A DNA stretch of 64,000 nt, taken from assembly GCA_965197585.1 (NCBI GenBank), contig OZ240215.1, positions 2,432,001 to 2,496,000 on the forward strand, read 5' to 3'. A model generated the notes under the pieces. It ran no database searches, had not been told where the DNA came from, and saw only the letters and a program-made list of their open reading frames with translations. Position 1 is the first letter of the stretch; each line of letters begins with the position of its first letter. The DNA comes from Dehalococcoidia bacterium. Its GTDB lineage: Bacteria > Chloroflexota > Dehalococcoidia > Plut-88900. Shown here in pieces: positions 17,407-52,442 of the stretch. The position numbers and the translations under genes are program-made.

Positions 17407-17482
17407 TGGTGCCCCTGGGGTGACTCGAACACCCGACACACGGTTTAGGAAACCGTTGCTCTATCCTCTGAGCTACAGGGGC
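17407..17482 (-). tRNA. tRNA-Arg(CCT)
   Basis: GCCCCTG/CAGGGGC acceptor stem, D-arm TAGCTCAGAGGATAGAGC, anticodon loop TT-CCT-AA, T-loop GTTCGAGT, encoded CCA; 76 nt. Confidence 0.97.
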
Positions 17483-32613: not shown

Positions 32614-32750
32614 TCTTATACTGCTGGAGAGACCATCCTCTCCAGCAGATCCATCTCCTGCCTAAAATGCGGGCGTCACATGCACAAAAAGCATGTGACG
32701 CCCGGTTCTTGCGTCTTCTCTTGAGGGGGCGAGGATCTCCCCTCTTGCCC

Positions 32751-34085
32751 CTAGTACCCTATCGCATCCAGCGACGCGTCCACCGCGTCCACGTAAGCAT
32801 CCATCTCCTCGTGACCCATCACCGTCGAGATGCAGCTCAGCCCCCGACCCGCATATACAATGCCGTGCCCCAGCATCTCGTGGCTGAACTTGTTGAACGT
32901 CTCCTGTCCAGGCCCGGACGCCGAGAAGTCCCGGAAGTCGTTCATATCCTGGTCCGTCAGGTGGAACCAGAACAGAGACCCGGAGCCCGTGATCTGCGCC
33001 GGCACTTCTTTCCGCACAATTAGGTCGCTCAGCTTACCTCTCACGTAGTCGCCCAGCCCACCTATCCGGTCGAACGCCTCAGGCGTCATCATTTTCATCG
33101 CCGTCAGCCCCGCCGTCATCGTCACCGGGTTCGCGTTGAAAGTCCCTCCGTGATGGACCTGGTGCCCCGACCTATGGTCGAAGACTTCCATCACGTCGTC
33201 CGAGCCTGCCACCGCCCCCACAGGGAAACCTCCCCCGATTATCTTCGCCAGTGCAGTTATGTCCGGCTTGATCCCATGTTGCTCAAGCGCTCCCTTATAG
33301 GAGAGCCGGAAACTGATGACTTCGTCCGAGATCAGAAGTATCCCGTAGTCCTGCGTTATTCGTCTTATCGACTCCAGGAAGCCCGGCTTGGGCGGTATCC
33401 ACCCGAGTGCCGCAGGTAGCGGATCGATGACCACCGCCGCCAGCTCGTCCTTGTGCTTCTCTATGATCGAGGCGCAAGCGTCGAAGTTGTTCCACGGCAT
33501 CGCGATCACTTCTTCCGTGACCACTGGCGATACGCTCGGCTCAGACACGCTGGTCGGGAATACGGAGTCGCCCCACTCACCTGGGTTGGCGGCCTCGCTC
33601 ACCTGGGCGTAGTCGTAGCTCCCGTGGTAGGCGCCCTCAATCTTGGCGATCTTGTACTTGCCCGTCCGAGCCCGAGCAGCCTTAATCGACAGCATCACCG
33701 CCTCACTCCCTGAGTTGCAGAACCGGATCTTGTCGATGGAGTCGATTCGGTCGACCAGCAGGTTCGCCAGTTCCAGCTCGGGCTCCGTCGGCATCGCGAA
33801 GGCCGTCCCCTTCTCCAGTTGCTTGCTGACCGCTTCCACTATCGCCGGATGCGCGTGCCCGTGGATCAGCGAAGTCATGTTGTTGATGAAGTCGAGCCGC
33901 TCCTCGCCCTCAACGTCTCTCAGCTTGAACCCGCTCGCACTGCTCACGTAGATCGGGTACGGATTCATCGTCACCGAGTGTCGGCTGTTTCCCCCCGGCA
34001 GCACCCTCAGACCCTGCTCGTAAAGCTGTTTCGACCGCGACGCTTCGGACCTGTACGCGATAGTCTCGGGGCCTTTGCCGGTCAT
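32751..34085 (-). CDS. class III aminotransferase (GSA aminomutase-like)
   Basis: 'LPGGNSR', 'NSGSEA', 'GAYHG', 'DEV', 'AKIIGGGFP', 'GTFNANP'; RBS AGGAGG before ATG 34085. Confidence 0.9.
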   Translation of the reverse strand: MTGKGPETIAYRSEASRSKQLYEQGLRVLPGGNSRHSVTMNPYPIYVSSASGFKLRDVEGEERLDFINNMTSLIHGHAHPAIVEAVSKQLEKGTAFAMPTEPELELANLLVDRIDSIDKIRFCNSGSEAVMLSIKAARARTGKYKIAKIEGAYHGSYDYAQVSEAANPGEWGDSVFPTSVSEPSVSPVVTEEVIAMPWNNFDACASIIEKHKDELAAVVIDPLPAALGWIPPKPGFLESIRRITQDYGILLISDEVISFRLSYKGALEQHGIKPDITALAKIIGGGFPVGAVAGSDDVMEVFDHRSGHQVHHGGTFNANPVTMTAGLTAMKMMTPEAFDRIGGLGDYVRGKLSDLIVRKEVPAQITGSGSLFWFHLTDQDMNDFRDFSASGPGQETFNKFSHEMLGHGIVYAGRGLSCISTVMGHEEMDAYVDAVDASLDAIGY

Positions 34086-34257
34086 GGGATACCTCCTAGT
34101 AATAAAGCCCCCGTCCAGGGGCTGAAAAAGAATATCAGACCCCCCACCCCCACGCAACGCCCCACATAGTCCCCTCTTCCTCAATGTGTCAAAGATGCGC
34201 CGAGGCGTGACGCTTGCATAACCGGCATTCCCGCGTAAGCATGTTCCCGAAATACAG

Positions 34258-34351
34258 CCTTTCCATTCCTGGGGGCAGGGTATTCCGCTCGCCCTGTCGA
34301 AGATGCGCCGTGGCGTGAGCGAAGTCGAAGGGTCTCAAGAACGGAAAGGGG
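34258..34351 (+). repeat. composite REP (ccctgagc..gtcgaaggg family) carrying a 21-nt insertion
   Basis: matches 55770-55843 apart from the insertion at 34297-34317. Confidence 0.8.
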
Positions 34352-34364
34352 GCAGGGTCCTCCC

Positions 34365-35056
34365 TCCCCCAAATGTGACACGAACCCCTTGACCAAAGCA
34401 AAACACTTGTGCTATATTCTCCCCTGAATGGCCAATCACTCACCCTAACCACCAAGGAGGAACCAAAAACTAGGGAAGCCCACCCGACCCCACCCGAGGA
34501 CTCAACGTCTCAGCCCATCCCAACGGCCCTCGCGCAGGCCCACGGCTCAAGCGAAAGTCGCCATCTCCTCAACCATCGGGTCCCGTGTACCCTTCCCCCT
34601 TCCCTGACCCCCAGGCGATGGAAGACGCCCTGGACCGTACTTAAAAGTCTCCTCATGGAGCAACCTTGTCCCATGGAGCGGAACGGGGCGGCCCGTAGCC
34701 GAGGCCCCCTCGGCTCTCCGTCCGCTTCCTCAAATAAAACTGGACTGTCCGCCACTCCCGGCTCCTGGATACAGGCGGCTAACTGGATACCCCGTACTCC
34801 TGCGAGGGGAACTGACCCTGGACTTTCCCCTTCCTGCACCCGCCTACGGCGGACAGCGCAGCCAACCCTCATTGGAGCCTATGACGGATGACGGACCCGT
34901 ACGTCCGACCATACTTCCAGGTCTAGGCGGCGGCGGAGACCCGTCCCACGCTCCCGGGACGCCTCCTAGCCCGCATTATCTAAATGTAGGCAGCCGAATC
35001 CAGCAAGCGTCTTTCATCGCCTTCCCACCAACAAACGACATACCAAACAAGACCCC
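34365..35056 (+). ncRNA. putative large structured non-coding element with own promoter, copy A
   Basis: homologous to 50181-50939(-); promoter 34389-34418; helices AGGGAAG/CTTCCCT and 34614-34628/35007-35021. Confidence 0.6.
34389..34418 (+). promoter_or_regulatory. sigma70 promoter with overlapping LexA-like box
   Basis: TTGACC-18 nt-TATATT with extended TG; AAAC-ACTT-GTGC in the spacer. Confidence 0.6.
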
Positions 35057-35115
35057 ACAATCGAAGATGGAACATCCGCCTTGGGCGGGTCCGCCTCAAG
35101 AGGACCGAATACCCC

Positions 35116-36036
35116 CTACTTAAACCCCACCATCACCTCTTTCGCAAACCGCTCTACCTGCGATATCCCCTCCTCCGGCGGACACACGACGTTCATCACA
35201 AACTCCGTCACCCCAACGTCCACGAACGCCTGTAACATCTCTCGCATCCGGTCTGCCGTCCCCAGCAGGTGAGGCGCATTCGCGGGCACGGTTGTCGAGC
35301 TGCCATATCTCCGCGTAAACACCCCCGAGGCTATCTCCGCCGACTCCTCCGCACTCCCCGAGAAGCACAGGAACAGGTGCATCACCCTCGTCATCGCCGA
35401 GTCCCCCCGCCCCGACTCCCGCGCATGCTTCTCGGCCTGCTCGAACATCGCCTTAGCCTCCTCCGGTGTCTTGCTCACAGGGATTAGTGAGTCGGCGAAC
35501 CGTCCAGCCCTTCTCACCACCGACGCCGCTCCTCCCCCGACATGTATCCGAGGGTGAGGCTTCTGCACCGGTTTGGGGACCAGTTGATATTCATCCAGGT
35601 CAAAATGCTTTCCGTGGAACGTCACCGAGTCCTCTGTCCACAACCTCTTGATCACCTCCAACGCCTCATCCGACCAGCTCGCCCTGTGCCGTACGTTGCC
35701 CCCGTATGCCTTGAAGTCGGGCCCTTCGTTACCCACTCCGACTCCCAGCACCGCCCTGCCCCCGGACAGGATGTCCAGGCTTGCCACCGTCTGCGCCACC
35801 ATCACAGGGTTCCTGAGCGGCAGCAGCATCACCGACGGGCCTACCATCAGCTTGCTGGTGTGGGCCGCCATGAACGACAACGCCGTGAAACACTCCAACG
35901 ACGACGCCCCCGACCCTATGTTCTCCGTTACCCAAAGCGAGTCTAACCCCAGTTCTTCAACCTTTTGAGCGTACGCCGGAAGGTCCGTGAAGTCGTCCCG
36001 CTCCGAATAAGTCACGCCGAACTTGATGTCTGACAT
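35116..36036 (-). CDS. LLM-class flavin-dependent oxidoreductase
   Basis: 'KFGV', 'DSLWVTE', 'LPLRNP', 'LDILSGGR', 'PKPVQKPHP'. Confidence 0.9.
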   Translation of the reverse strand: MSDIKFGVTYSERDDFTDLPAYAQKVEELGLDSLWVTENIGSGASSLECFTALSFMAAHTSKLMVGPSVMLLPLRNPVMVAQTVASLDILSGGRAVLGVGVGNEGPDFKAYGGNVRHRASWSDEALEVIKRLWTEDSVTFHGKHFDLDEYQLVPKPVQKPHPRIHVGGGAASVVRRAGRFADSLIPVSKTPEEAKAMFEQAEKHARESGRGDSAMTRVMHLFLCFSGSAEESAEIASGVFTRRYGSSTTVPANAPHLLGTADRMREMLQAFVDVGVTEFVMNVVCPPEEGISQVERFAKEVMVGFK

Positions 36037-36051
36037 GTCAGTTCACCTCTG

Positions 36052-36969
36052 CTATTTGAAATTCGGCATTATCTCCCGTGCCACCTTCTCCACCGTTGCC
36101 GGGACCTCTCCCGCCGGACACACCGGGTCGAGAATAACGTGCGTCGCCCCCGCTGCCTCGTATTCCTTCAACACCCTAACACACTCCTCTACCGTTCCCA
36201 GAACGGCGTTCACCCCTGCGTGGATATGGTAAACCGGGTATGTGTATCGAGCCAGCAGCGTCGCCCTCGCTACCTCCAGTGCGCCCTCCGCAGAGCCCCC
36301 AAAGTTCACGTACAGGTAAATCCCATTCGCAAACTCTCTCGACTCCCTCCCACACTCTCGCCGGTATCCCTCTATCTTCCTGTACATCTCTGCCGTATCT
36401 CCCGGCGCCGTGTGTGCCGGTATGAACCCGTCCCCCCACCTCCCTGCCCGCCGAAGTACGGGGGGTGCATCTCCCCCGACCCAGATCGGTGGATAAGGTC
36501 GCTGATACGGCCTCGCCCCAAGAGCGTAGTCCGAAAACTGCGAGAACTTGCCTTCAAAGGTGACTGGCTCCCCAGTCCAAAGCTTGGTCATTATCTCCAG
36601 CGTTTCGTCGCACCGCTTGCCCCGCTCGCTCAAGGGCACACTGTAGGCCTTATATCCCTCAACCGCGTTCCCCCCCGACCCTACCCCAAGTATGAACCGC
36701 CCTTCCGAGAGGTGGTCTACCGTCGCCACAGCGTGTGCGAATCCAACTGGGTTCCGGAGAGGCAGAAGCACCACGGCCGGCCCTATCGTGATCCGCTCCG
36801 TATACGCGGCGAACTGGCTCAGGACCACCATCGGTTCCAAGGCCTCGGGGCCGCTGTGCACGTTCTCCGTCACCCACAGGGAGTCGTAGCCCGATGATTC
36901 CACCAGCCGTGCCCACTCCCGAGCCTGCTTCGCGTCCTGGTAGTAAGCGTAAGATATTCCGAATTTCAT
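36052..36969 (-). CDS. LLM-class flavin-dependent oxidoreductase
   Basis: 'MKFGI', 'GYDSLWVTE', 'LPLRNP', 'DHLSEGRFILGVG'. Confidence 0.9.
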   Translation of the reverse strand: MKFGISYAYYQDAKQAREWARLVESSGYDSLWVTENVHSGPEALEPMVVLSQFAAYTERITIGPAVVLLPLRNPVGFAHAVATVDHLSEGRFILGVGSGGNAVEGYKAYSVPLSERGKRCDETLEIMTKLWTGEPVTFEGKFSQFSDYALGARPYQRPYPPIWVGGDAPPVLRRAGRWGDGFIPAHTAPGDTAEMYRKIEGYRRECGRESREFANGIYLYVNFGGSAEGALEVARATLLARYTYPVYHIHAGVNAVLGTVEECVRVLKEYEAAGATHVILDPVCPAGEVPATVEKVAREIMPNFK

Positions 36970-50068: not shown

Positions 50069-50180
50069 GTCCTGTCTCCTTTGACTAGAATGCGCCTGAC
50101 GATCGGGGGGAATGTTACCCCACGTCCACGGTGGGTACAATGAGGGAGATGGGGCGGTTATTCAGTTGGAGTGGGGTTTC

Positions 50181-50939
50181 GGGTCTTGTTCTGTCTGTTG
50201 GGAAGGGGTTGGCGATGGAAGACGCCCTCTTGCCCTCAAATTGGCTTGCACTCTTCATTACGGGTGTTCCGGCTGTTGGGGGACCTTTAGAGCAGGCCCC
50301 GCCTGAGAGGGAGGGACTTGCAGCCGGCCGTGCCTTTTTGCTCGATTATATACACGGACCATTCCGGGTCAGGACGTCCGTCAGAGGCTCCTACTATTGT
50401 TTTCGGGGCTGTATGCCGCTATGGGCACGACGGGGCCAGTGATCCAGCTGTGGCCCCACAGCCTAACTAATGATTTTCAGTTTGCCGGAGCCCTGAGGAG
50501 CCCAGTCTCCGGCGCCCCCGCGCACAATGCGCATTAGTAGCAGGAGCAGACCTATTTGGAGATGGTTCTCCGTCGGGGGCACATGGTCCGCTGCATACCT
50601 CCTTAATTATCACCCCCGCTGCTAAACTCCCGGTGTAGGGAGAGGGGTGGGAGTAAAAGCCAGGGCGTCTTTCCATCGCCTGCGGATCAGGGAAGGGGCA
50701 CGGGACCCGGTGGTGAGGAGATGGCGGTCCTCCATAGGCGGATGTTCCACTTTCGCTTGAGCCGCGGGCCTGCGCGAGGGCCGTTGGGATGGGCTTGGAC
50801 GTTGAGTCCTCTGGTGGGTCGGGTGGGCTTCCCTGGGTTTTTGGTTCCTCCTTGAGATAGTTAGGTTGGTGTTCGAACGGGGAGGAGAATAGCACGAGTG
50901 TTCGGGTTGGGTCAAGGGGTTCGTGTCACACTTGGGGAG
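50181..50939 (-). ncRNA. putative large structured non-coding element with own promoter, copy B
   Basis: homologous to 34365-35056; promoter 50886-50915; closing helix 50662-50680/50211-50228. Confidence 0.6.
50886..50915 (-). promoter_or_regulatory. sigma70 promoter with overlapping LexA-like box
   Basis: TTGACC-18 nt-TATTCT with extended TG; GAAC-ACTC-GTGC in the spacer. Confidence 0.6.
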
Positions 50940-50959: not shown

Positions 50960-51078
50960 GGGAACCCTCACCCCCTTTATCCCCCTCTCCCTTAGGGCCT
51001 TCAAGGGAGAGGGGGAGATAAGAACAGAGGGAGACGTTGGCGCGTCTGCGCCAACGTCTCCCTCTAGTTCAGTACTGG
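50960..51078 (-). repeat. ~118-bp double-hairpin dispersed repeat, copy 2
   Basis: inverted match to 24563-24680. Confidence 0.9.
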
Positions 51079-51387: not shown

Positions 51388-52442
51388 TGTAAGTGTTAGG
51401 TAATTCGTTGACAGATTGGTATAAGAGGCCAACACCAATCTGGAGGCGAAAATGCGAGACAACAGCAAGGACCTCACCCTTGAAAGGAACTACATTCAGA
51501 AGTGGCGATTCCTCATACAGGAATACCGATTGGTCAAGGCCAGGAAGCATCCCCGCTTCCGCTTTGCCCAAGACTTCTATGCCTTCCACGGCACTACACG
51601 TCAGACCTTTGCCAAGTACTACAACCGGTTCCTCCTCTCCCCCTCCGACGACTCCTTCTTCCCCCGTAAGCGGGGCCCAATTGGAAGAGCCGCCGTACCC
51701 TGCCCTACATAGAGCAGAAGGTTCTCAGCGAATGCTTCAACGGTACCAATCGCTACGAGATATATGCCATACTCAAGCCCATCCTCAAACAGCACACCCC
51801 TAAGCCCTCTACCATCTACGCCATCACCAGACGCCACGGTGTTAATAGGCTCACAAAGCCGATGCAGCAATCGAAGCGCAAGATCATCAAGACCCGGGCA
51901 GGGGAGTTGGGGCACCTGGACAGCCACCACCTCAGCCGGGACCTCCTGGTAGACTCCAAGCGCCGTTACTACCTGGTAGCCCTCATCGACGCCTGCACCC
52001 GCTTGGCCTGGGCCGAAGTGGTCGGAGACATCAAGAGCCTTTCTGTGATGTTCGCAACCCTGAAATCCATCAACTTCCTTAATGCGGAGTACGGCATCAA
52101 ATTCGAGGCCATCCTCACCGACAATGGCCCTGAGATGGCCTCGCCCAGGAACATTGAGGGCCACCCCATGGAACGGATGCTCAATGAGCTGGGCATCAAG
52201 CACCGCTACACACGCCCTTATAGGCCCCAGACCAACGGGAAGATAGAGCGGTTCTGGAGAACCCTGAACGAGGACCTGCTGGAGGGGACCACCTTCGAGT
52301 CGGTGGCAGAGCTGCGGGACGAACTGCAGCAATATCTGCTCTACTACAATACCCAGAGACCCCACCAGGCAATGGACGGAAAGACCCCTTTGGAGACCCT
52401 TCAATCCCTCTAATTCTGTCAACGAATTATCTGACATTTACA
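51388..52442 (+). mobile_element. IS481-family insertion sequence
   Basis: terminal IRs TGTAAGTGTTAGGTAATTCGTTGACAGA / TCTGTCAACGAATTATCTGACATTTACA; flanking 5-bp direct repeat GGAAT. Confidence 0.9.
51452..52413 (+). pseudogene. IS481 DDE transposase with frameshift near 51677
   Basis: 'ELGHLD', 'ILTDNGPE', 'RPYRPQTNGKIERFWRTL', 'YN..RPH'; split into two frames at GGCCCAAT. Confidence 0.85.

Follow-up and report, generated by a model that had tools for sequence, protein, structure and literature searches.

The locus considered here raises a simple question: what are the two related intergenic stretches that lie on opposite strands of a 64,000-nucleotide piece of the chromosome of a Dehalococcoidia bacterium (positions 2,432,001 to 2,496,000 of contig OZ240215.1, hereafter the window)? 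The window belongs to a genome (G000) available as a single contig (C1) of 3.43 Mb. Copy A of the element occupies positions 34374 to about 35113 on the + strand, where it ends at the stop codon of a convergent gene, and copy B, which is built from the same parts, runs from 50930 to about 50158 on the − strand. Aligned with each other, the two span 831 columns with a mean column identity of 75%. The original prediction had taken them for a new, large, structured non-coding RNA (ncRNA) with its own promoter, and the five features claimed for it (promoter, Shine-Dalgarno (SD)-like box, folded 5' domain, long-range helix and conserved tail) are present in both copies, as judged from sequence reading and alignment. 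The answer that we favour, with slightly more confidence than doubt, is a genus-restricted family of self-contained ncRNA genes, for which a mechanism is proposed in which a cassette of structured RNA is shuffled by recombination.

The element is far more numerous than the two copies first recognized. A BLAST comparison of copy A with its own genome gave 64 high-scoring segment pairs, up to 58 of which cover the 5' 270 nt and 10–11 the full length. The similarity of the copies is far beyond chance, because a two-round nhmmer profile finds 80 matches in the genome, comprising 57 full 5' domains and 23 partial ones, mostly the promoter part alone; the supposed pair is thus a dispersed set of about 57 copies. 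The 3'-arm motif CTTCCATCGCC is present in all 57 full copies, and the 3' arm ends 566–767 nt (median 649) after the start of the profile, the whole unit measuring about 0.65–0.85 kb. A covariance model of the 5' domain (R1; 175 positions, 28 pairs) matched 58 times in this genome and 42, 54, 23, 70, 52, 43, 40 and 39 times in eight congeners. No match to R1 was obtained in three genomes from three other genera of the same family, and BLAST gave none in 29 genomes, each of which represents another family of the class. When 185,579 species, with one genome each, were scanned for an exact pattern, 22 stretches in six records were returned, all of them titled 'MAG: Dehalococcoidia bacterium' (MAG, metagenome-assembled genome); among JGI metagenome contigs, five short ones with matches were found, all from one project, and viral contigs gave no match to the family. 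The family is restricted to the genus, with 23–70 copies per genome.

The claim of novelty was examined against Rfam 15 (4227 models). In the window and in 14 loci covering all the classes of the variable middle domain described below (S0–S6), only tRNAs reached the gathering threshold, and no family did so on copy A or copy B; permissive scans of the two copies gave far-sub-threshold chance matches only. A tRNA-Arg (CCT) at 17407–17482 (−) is the only tRNA, and the only Rfam match, in the window. The literature search, whose reach did not extend to supplements and subscription journals, found no prior description of the family.

The element begins with a promoter. In copy A, the motif TGTGACACGAACCCC (34374–34388, +) stands directly upstream of the promoter P1, TTGACC-18 nt-TG-TATATT (34389–34418, +). 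A promoter scan found ten of 12 consensus matches together with the TG, at one site as compared with 0.3 expected in shuffled sequence; it bore out the predicted promoter, with the start of TTGACC at 34389, one base away from the earlier −35 position. Copy B carries the equivalent motif and boxes at 50886–50930 (−), with TTGACC at 50915–50910 and TATTCT ending at 50886. The upstream motif and the −35 and −10 boxes are at least 90% conserved over the 57 copies, and from them we infer a transcription start near 34425 in copy A and near 50880 in copy B. A loose search of the genome for the motif followed by TTGAC gave 100 matches: 52 copies of the family, 12 copies of a second family, and 36 others, among them a tRNA gene, a few genes for small proteins, members of a third repeat family and intragenic matches due to chance. 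Upstream of the only 16S rRNA gene stands GGGTACATTAGC-TTGACT-17-TAGATT, in which the upstream motif has the form seen in other species of the genus (GTACATTTGC-TTGACA), and the tRNA gene is preceded by the related motif TGTGACACGACCCGATTGAC. Since the same kind of motif precedes the 16S and tRNA genes, the element appears, by its sequence, to use the stable-RNA promoter type of the organism.

Behind the promoter of copy A lies an SD-like box, AAGGAGGAACCAAAAAC (34454–34470, +), whose AAGGAGG shows no variation among the 57 aligned 5' domains and stands at 50853–50847 (−) in copy B. It is a perfect 7-nt complement of the 16S 3' end, ...CACCTCCTTT. As had been claimed, the box has no start codon behind it: neither ATG, GTG nor TTG occurs at normal spacing in copy A or copy B. 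Descent of the element from the rRNA leader or from the 16S gene itself was rejected, the 5'-domain profile giving no match to the 16S gene and its flanks at E up to 10.

The transcript of the element is predicted to be highly structured, and the prediction depends on the strand. Against dinucleotide shuffles, the fold z-scores on the promoter strand are −3.78 for copy A and −3.50 for copy B, as compared with −0.16 for the opposite strand of copy A, and the minimum free energy (MFE) folds of both copies recover a 5' rod as well as a long closing helix. The rod of copy A (34472–34605, +) is supported by the MFE fold, by the covariance model R1 and by covariation. It consists of the nested helices AGGGAAG/CTTCCCT, CAC/GTG, GACCC/GGGTC, GAGGA/TCCTC, AGCC/GGCT and GGCC/GGCC, the first of which closes it in the MFE folds (34472–34478 with 34599–34605, +), and its internal loops are conserved. 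The helices named in the original prediction were recovered in these folds; the 'multibranch' arrangement was not, for the domain is a single nested rod with internal loops. R1 matches copy A at 34454–34634 with 184 bits and copy B, from the SD-like box through the rod to the 5' arm of the closing helix, at 50659–50853 (−) with 168.5 bits. The rod of copy B holds an inserted 22-nt unit, GGAACATCCGCCTATGGAGGAC, at 50748–50727 (−). Covariation in the rod was studied on 87 model-aligned 5' domains, 79 of them distinct. Among the distinct sequences, 94.6% of cells are standard pairs, and 13 of the 28 pairs show changes on both sides, as compared with 4.1 ± 1.3 in shuffles (none of 500 reaching 13) and with 3–6 in a control in which the partners were slid. 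Helices 1, 2, 3 and 6 covary.

The predicted long-range helix was likewise confirmed. In copy A, its 5' arm GGCGATGGAAGACGC (34614–34628, +), located by sequence reading and comparison of the arms, pairs with the 3' arm GCGTCTTTCATCGCC (35007–35021, +), with one G.U pair on the + strand; in copy B, the 3' arm is GGGCGTCTTCCATCGCC at 50227–50211 (−). A closing helix of 11–24 bp is present in all 56 copies evaluated, the script having failed to locate it in one of the 57, and the totals amount to 858 Watson-Crick pairs, 25 G.U pairs and 33 mismatches (18 of them A.C). The arms come in matching versions, ..GACGC/GCGTC.. in 37 copies, ..GGTCC/GGACC.. in 19 and GACAC/GTGTC in one, which are compensatory classes. 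Together with the strand-specific z-scores and the covariation of the rod, these classes bear out the description of the element as a structured RNA.

The arms enclose domain II, which is 300–530 nt long. The original prediction regarded this middle part as diverged, and the comparison of copies showed that it is not idiosyncratic to either one: domain II of copy A (34629–35006, +) belongs to a class, S1, of ten copies in the genome with 95% mean column identity, about ten copies sharing it with copy A at 87–92% identity, and that of copy B (50228–50663, −) to a class, S0, of 12. The further classes are S2 (9 copies), S3 (7), S4 (6), S5 (6) and S6 (2), and there are five singletons. Alignments within a class fold at energies far below those of column shuffles, e.g. 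−135 as compared with −87 for S1 and −94 as compared with −25 for S0. A common core was found by regular expression in 30 of the 57 copies, namely in classes S0, S1, S4 and S5 and in one singleton. It is laid out as CUG, a hairpin with a 12–18-nt loop containing CUGGAY or CCGAU, a second hairpin and CAG; in copy A, where folds were also used, it lies at 34800–34856 (+) with CUGGAC in the first loop, and in copy B at 50461–50409 (−). Two adjacent hairpins appear in the single-sequence folds of five of the seven core representatives. The stems differ by class (GGGGCC/GGCCCC, GGGGAA/UUCCCC, GGGGGC/GCCCCC and GAGGCUC/GAGCCUC), and they seem to covary across classes, a qualitative judgement as MAFFT misaligned the stems. 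The loop of the S0 core hairpin (50452–50443, −) holds a 10-mer, GCUGGAUCAC, identical to the 16S 3' end before the anti-SD; a relation to the 16S gene on this ground was dropped, as about 0.8 chance matches are expected by our own estimate and the other classes do not conserve the 10-mer.

Beyond the 3' arm follows a conserved tail, as predicted. In copy A it is A/C-rich and then continues with ..CACAATCGAAGA and hairpin units TGGAACATCCGCCTTGGGCGGGTCCGCCTCAAGAGGAC (35022–35113, +; comparison of 57 tails and unit counts), and so reaches past its earlier limit to about 35113; in copy B, arm and tail together occupy 50158–50227 (−), the tail ending in CTGAATAA. A unit of 15–22 nt, (TGGAACA)TCCGCCTNTGGAGGA(C), occurs 0–2 times per tail and is present in the tails of 32 of the 57 copies (35068–35110, +, in the window). 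It is also found in the rods of copy B (50748–50727, −), L003 and L028 and in leaders of the second family, and it behaves like a tiny insertion module.

RNA libraries offer a first view of the element outside the genome. Eight RNA runs from three studies hold 5–10% of the sampled words of 32700–36100. Four runs, representing all three studies, were placed as Logan contigs at an identity of at least 90%, leaving out X3, X4, X7 and X8 with shares of 0.05–0.08. Contigs cover 34410–35013 in all four, and the summed word depth peaks at 26, 34, 158 and 150 within 34524–34865. The organism or a close relative is present in those libraries, because pieces of the neighbouring aminotransferase gene were recovered with few differences (143 nt with none, and a 430-nt stretch of a 439-nt contig with eight). 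The contigs stand for presence in RNA libraries and not for a mapped transcript. The convergent genes at 35100–36100 are without contig cover apart from one bin of X6 with a depth of 2.35, and cover upstream of 34410 is low; these are contig gaps and were not used as evidence.

The position of the copies relative to genes was evaluated with long open reading frames (ORFs), weighted by third-position G+C content (GC3), as stand-ins for genes. Of the 57 copies, 46 have a downstream gene in the same orientation as the element (binomial p = 3e-6), and a divergent upstream gene was seen in 36 of 56. Copy A is flanked by a divergent class-III aminotransferase gene and by two convergent luciferase-like monooxygenase genes, and copy B stands directly 5' of a co-oriented Amidohydro_2 gene, with about 90 nt from the end of the element to the start codon. 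Across the copies, the downstream genes are unrelated to each other; by their N-terminal sequences, they presumably include UvrA, leucyl- and glutaminyl-tRNA synthetases, deformylase, RibF, transporters and amidohydrolases.

How the copies came to these positions can be approached by comparison within the genus. For 29 loci of other species, the flanking sequences were compared with this genome, and 12 distinct loci were found to have a copy at the orthologous place here. Five of the 29 (L036, L037, L038, L043 and L062) hold the element there but not in G000, whose five empty sites lie near 1409100, 1466200, 1494800, 2019100 and 3208300 of C1. The alignment of L038 was confined to the gene, and the comparison of promoters and boundaries covers the other four pairs. 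In all four, the −10 box of the neighbour itself is present whether the site is filled or empty. The end of the inserted DNA coincides with the neighbour's −35 box or falls about 11 nt before it in L036, L037 and L062, and the sequence shared in L043 starts 3' of the −35 position. On their left sides, the insertions bring a REP-like (repetitive extragenic palindromic) hairpin and a terminator hairpin along, and at L062, the insertion stands in place of 160 nt of unrelated sequence. Neither terminal inverted repeats nor target duplications were seen in the five filled/empty pairs, in which the left boundary is blurred by repeats so that a short duplication is possible.

The loci also differ in content. 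At three loci with both flanks conserved, the class of domain II is switched between species: S1 vs S2 in L033, S1 vs S3 in L035 and S4 vs S0 in L061. The two sides of L042, and likewise those of L050, map next to separate copies in G000 (2983164/1047276 and 660550/2467250), and one of these flank matches is the downstream flank of copy A. This suggests that copies serve as rearrangement breakpoints, as recombination between copies would produce. The original prediction had called the element possibly mobile. The five sites filled elsewhere and empty here speak for this; the hallmarks of transposition were not found, and for that reason spread by recombination is at least as likely.

A hairpin module accompanies some of these elements. 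At 51066–51025 (−), about 110 nt upstream of the copy B promoter, a perfect 19-bp hairpin, TAGAGGGAGACGTTGGCGC..GCGCCAACGTCTCCCTCTG, is followed by the T-rich TTCTTAT. Similar terminator-like hairpins occur in the inserted DNA of L036 and L038, and the module is repeated 5' of element promoters; it looks like a portable terminator or insulator.

The sequence of events that we propose begins at the sigma-70-type, near-consensus promoter, which with its stable-RNA upstream motif would start transcription close to the position given above. About 30 nt into the RNA, AAGGAGG would pair with the 16S 3' end, keep a 30S subunit at the 5' end and protect the RNA against 5'-to-3' decay through RNase J, by analogy with the stabilizing SD (STAB-SD) sequences discussed below. 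The RNA would fold into the conserved C-rich rod, followed by the long-range helix of 15–24 bp that encloses domain II; the rod is proposed because of its covariation, the helix because of its compensatory classes and the fold as a whole because of its strand-specific stability. RNase III may plausibly cut at the long perfect helix and release domain II, much as in rRNA precursors and Correia elements. The genome encodes RNase III (229 bits against a cut-off of 166) as well as RNase J (565 bits against a cut-off of 400). Domain II comes in about seven classes, four of which share the two-hairpin core with stems of differing sequence. The copies would spread, reshuffle and become homogenized mainly through recombination with one another rather than through a dedicated transposase, as indicated by the class switches, the filled and empty sites without terminal repeats or duplications, and the breakpoints at copies. 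They would be kept just 5' of gene promoters, pointing at the genes, and about half also place a GTACAC-type motif against the neighbour's −35 box; for this last reason, the cassette probably raises or insulates expression of the downstream gene.

A number of observations weigh against this reading. In the rod, helix 4 (GAGGA/UCCUC) is invariant and never covaries, and the shuffle-based support for the rod is inflated, since the alignment was fitted to the structure being tested and the copies are related. Within the domain-II classes, compensatory pairs number 1 vs 0.7 in column shuffles for S1 and 5 vs 4.7 for S5, and are only slightly above the shuffles in S0 (6 vs 2.4) and S4 (10 vs 6.7); covariation is weak there because there is too little variation. 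A call of the transcribed strand from the closing helix was given up as indecisive, with 25 G.U pairs barely exceeding 18 A.C pairs. The contigs from RNA libraries sum all copies and give neither strand, ends nor level, and RNA libraries can contain DNA. Eleven of the 57 copies, copy A included, face a convergent gene. The 3' promoter-upstream module, GGTGTGTCACTAA..., ends only 28 of the 57 copies; in 21 of these 28, GAGTACAC also stands a few nucleotides ahead of a TTGAC-like box, a strict −35/−10 test is passed by 12, and the GTACAC of the module abuts the neighbour's −35 box in 21 of the 57 copies.

A more far-reaching version of the ncRNA-gene family is advanced only tentatively. It holds that the element is a standardised RNA expression cassette in which a stable-RNA promoter, a ribosome-binding box acting like a 5' cap, a conserved rod and a processing stem serve to express swappable cargo RNAs of about 400 nt and of several classes, that its dozens of copies are exchanged between loci through recombination, and that the domain-II RNAs or the rod act in trans. 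Such a role might be, for example, that of an abundant ribonucleoprotein scaffold or of an RNA that titrates 30S subunits or proteins in this sponge-associated Dehalococcoidia lineage.

Among the rival explanations, the one that survives best, even if we think it rather unlikely, is that the element is selfish or neutral mosaic repeat DNA, similar to MITEs (miniature transposable elements with inverted repeats) or bacterial interspersed mosaic elements (BIMEs); it would spread by recombination or through some transposase, it would be transcribed only through the promoter it carries, its RNA would have no function and its inverted repeats would matter as DNA. The high copy number within one genus only fits such DNA well, as do the filled and empty sites, the class switching and the breakpoints at copies. 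The same can be said of the company of the copies, which lie among REP-like hairpins, terminator hairpins and 15–22-nt hairpin units, and of the scarce covariation inside domain-II classes and the nearly equal G.U and A.C counts in the long helix. Against this explanation stand the strand-specific stability (z of −3.8 and −3.5 vs −0.2) and the compensatory changes, which exceed both controls in the rod and seem to recur across classes in the core of domain II. The unpaired loops, the AAGGAGG box and the complete promoter, moreover, do not vary among the 57 copies. Membership among MITEs in particular was rejected: terminal inverted repeats and target duplications were not seen, and the ends do not match those of the two insertion sequence (IS) families of the genome described below.

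It is less probable still, and on the whole quite unlikely, that the element is a long cis-acting 5' leader or regulatory module of the downstream gene, acting for instance in sensing, processing or RNA stability, the domain-II classes then being different sensors. The frequent co-orientation of the downstream gene is what such a leader would show; the element also ends beside the neighbour's promoter, copy B does so shortly before the Amidohydro_2 start codon, and a scan found no intrinsic terminator at the 3' end of copy A or copy B. The original prediction had denied that copy A is a 5' leader. For copy A, which faces a convergent gene as ten further copies do, this held; across the family, most copies point at a co-oriented gene. 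Membership among riboswitches or cis-regulatory leaders was rejected, for besides the convergent cases the downstream genes are diverse, filled and empty sites alike retain the −35 and −10 boxes of the neighbour, and the class of domain II differs between species at the same gene.

Multi-copy, large, structured RNAs are also known as guides or partners of the nucleases and recombinases of mobile elements, and the genome does hold mobile elements. Nine IS110-type genes were found, seven in IS copies of about 1.15 kb and two diverged (e.g. at 1396256, 2811211, 3412979 and 2899408 of the contig), as well as about 21 copies of a 1.06–1.09-kb IS with an rve integrase core, intact copies of which encode a 320-aa transposase. 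Two of the 57 copies lie about 135 nt outside an IS110 end, and 55 have no IS110 neighbour; altogether, two IS110 and four rve IS copies adjoin elements. The IS copies stand beside elements because the REP-like repeat that holds them is common upstream of elements. The IS110-type IS sits inside this repeat, between GTCATTCCGAGGCYCCGCGAGGAATC and ..TAGGACTTGCCC, and the rve-type IS targets the same repeat and duplicates ATTCC, so that by sequence the repeat appears to be a hotspot for both IS families. Neither IS can be taken for the parent of the element, as the ends of the IS110-type (TGTGTGACGAAGC.../...CACAGTTGC) and the inverted repeats of the rve-type (TGTAAGTGTTAGGTAATTCGTTGACAGA) are unlike the element ends. 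A diverged rve-type copy (about 89% identity) lies in the window at 51388–52437 (+), about 450 nt upstream of copy B, its frame split in two ORFs (51393–51803 and 51862–52413).

That the element is itself such a guide or partner RNA, i.e. an omega RNA of IS200/605, a HEARO RNA of IscB, an IS110 bridge RNA, or a group II intron or retroelement RNA, is very improbable, despite its copy number and the two IS110-type genes that lie just upstream of a copy. No match to RVT_1, Y1_Tnp (PF01797) or TnpB-type (PF07282) domains was obtained in the genome, and control genomes did match. An omega RNA or HEARO was rejected for lack of a linked TnpB or IscB and of Y1 transposase matches, a bridge or seek RNA as the element lies outside the IS110 ends, and an intron or retroelement RNA as there is neither RVT_1 nor a match to an Rfam intron model.

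Finally, the chance that the element is a protein-coding gene or small-protein family read from the AAGGAGG box is close to negligible: a strong SD is there, and so are long stop-free frames (e.g. 160 aa at 34409–34891), which are expected anyway because the sequence is C-rich and T-poor, but no start codon stands behind the SD, the most conserved domain has indels of 1, 2, 8 and 22 nt among copies, and copies of one domain-II class, at about 95% identity, have their stop-free frames on different strands, in different frames and over different lengths. No open frame is common to the members of any domain-II class, in agreement with the earlier view that indels break the frames and that the element is non-coding. 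A mini-ORF in the tail, ATGGAACATCCGCC...TGA, was rejected as 25 of the 57 copies are without the unit. Gene callers will keep placing spurious ORFs on these elements, the 160-aa frame being an example.

The family of ncRNA genes may be compared with several known systems. The Correia elements of Neisseria are dispersed repeats that can supply promoters to their neighbours, and their inverted repeats form a hairpin in the transcript that is bound by RNase III (PMC2649163). The present element resembles these repeats (also called CREE or NEMIS) in being dispersed and intergenic, in lying beside adjacent genes that it may affect and in varying between related genomes. Correia elements measure about 100–150 bp, have terminal inverted repeats and target duplications and are not known to possess a large conserved structured interior. 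The present element, in contrast, is 650–850 bp long and has a complete inward promoter, its inverted repeats are internal, about 250 nt from the 5' end, and terminal repeats and duplications were not seen. HEARO and omega RNAs and the guide RNAs of IS200/605 are similar to it in being large, structured, linked to mobility and present in tens of copies per genome. HEARO and omega RNAs lie next to a gene for IscB or TnpB within an IS that has a Y1 transposase, and HEARO is an Rfam family, whereas here no Y1_Tnp or TnpB-type match, no linked ORF and no Rfam match was found.

With OLE, GOLLD and ROOL, the element shares a length of at least 500 nt, an elaborate conserved structure, the lack of coding capacity and a narrow phylogenetic range. 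These RNAs, all of them Rfam families, usually occur in one or a few copies per genome; the present family differs from them in its 23–70 copies, its exchangeable middle domains and its own conserved promoter, and no match in sequence or structure links it to them. Likeness to the rRNA operon lies in the upstream motif, which is of the same type as that of the 16S promoter, in the long-range perfect helix that brackets a structured RNA and in the encoded RNase III; unlike the operon, the element has a 5' domain whose profile finds no counterpart in the 16S region. As to the box, an SD near the 5' end without a start codon is also reported for the STAB-SD, the 5' stabilizer of Bacillus cryIIIA mRNA (Agaisse and Lereclus 1996, listed in the references of PMC7509114), and the likeness is one of analogy only. 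Ribosomes at a strong SD are reported to block RNase J1 (PMC5737220). Taken as a whole, the element would work most like a very large promoter-bearing repeat of the Correia type combined with an ornate large ncRNA.

The promoter type is also found with other sequences. A second family of 12–15 copies has the same promoter and another 5' domain, CAGGCCCGAC..CGTCGGCCC..AAAGGAGTCCCATGAGTCGCAC..CCGAGCGGTATGGGACCGCCCGG..GCGCCTCCTCC, after which some copies carry the same CAAGCGATGGAAGGTCC arm. Examples on the contig are L096 (3022077–3022900), L095 (3386777–3386000), L097 (1590852–1591900) and L098 (62855–63900), and four loci of this family gave no Rfam match at E up to 0.1. L096 has an internal tandem duplication of about 190 nt and a fold z-score of only −1.57. 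A third, CAATCAA-rich repeat family follows the same promoter type, e.g. at 3345552, 3421139 and 2704883. Three paralogous proteins of 132–140 aa without a Pfam match are likewise encoded behind it, at 1119432–1119830 (−), 2873874–2874278 (−) and 1869352–1869774 (+).

The element is rated as a new family among the dispersed transcribed repeats and large structured ncRNAs, and there is a real chance that it represents a new kind of modular RNA cassette system. Its roughly 57 genes of about 650 nt make up about 1–1.5% of the chromosome. Should the RNA be functional, the family would rank with the largest structured RNA families yet observed in any bacterial genome and with those of highest copy number; its lineage is uncultured and has no place in the catalogues of RNA families. 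The approximately 420 paralogous and orthologous copies form a natural set for solving the fold of a large RNA by covariation, and the family offers an example of RNA genes that exchange domains as modules. It may also point to a new means by which bacteria bring a promoter, an insulator and an RNA jointly to positions before genes, and its effect on promoter regions and rearrangement breakpoints extends over the whole genus even if it is selfish.

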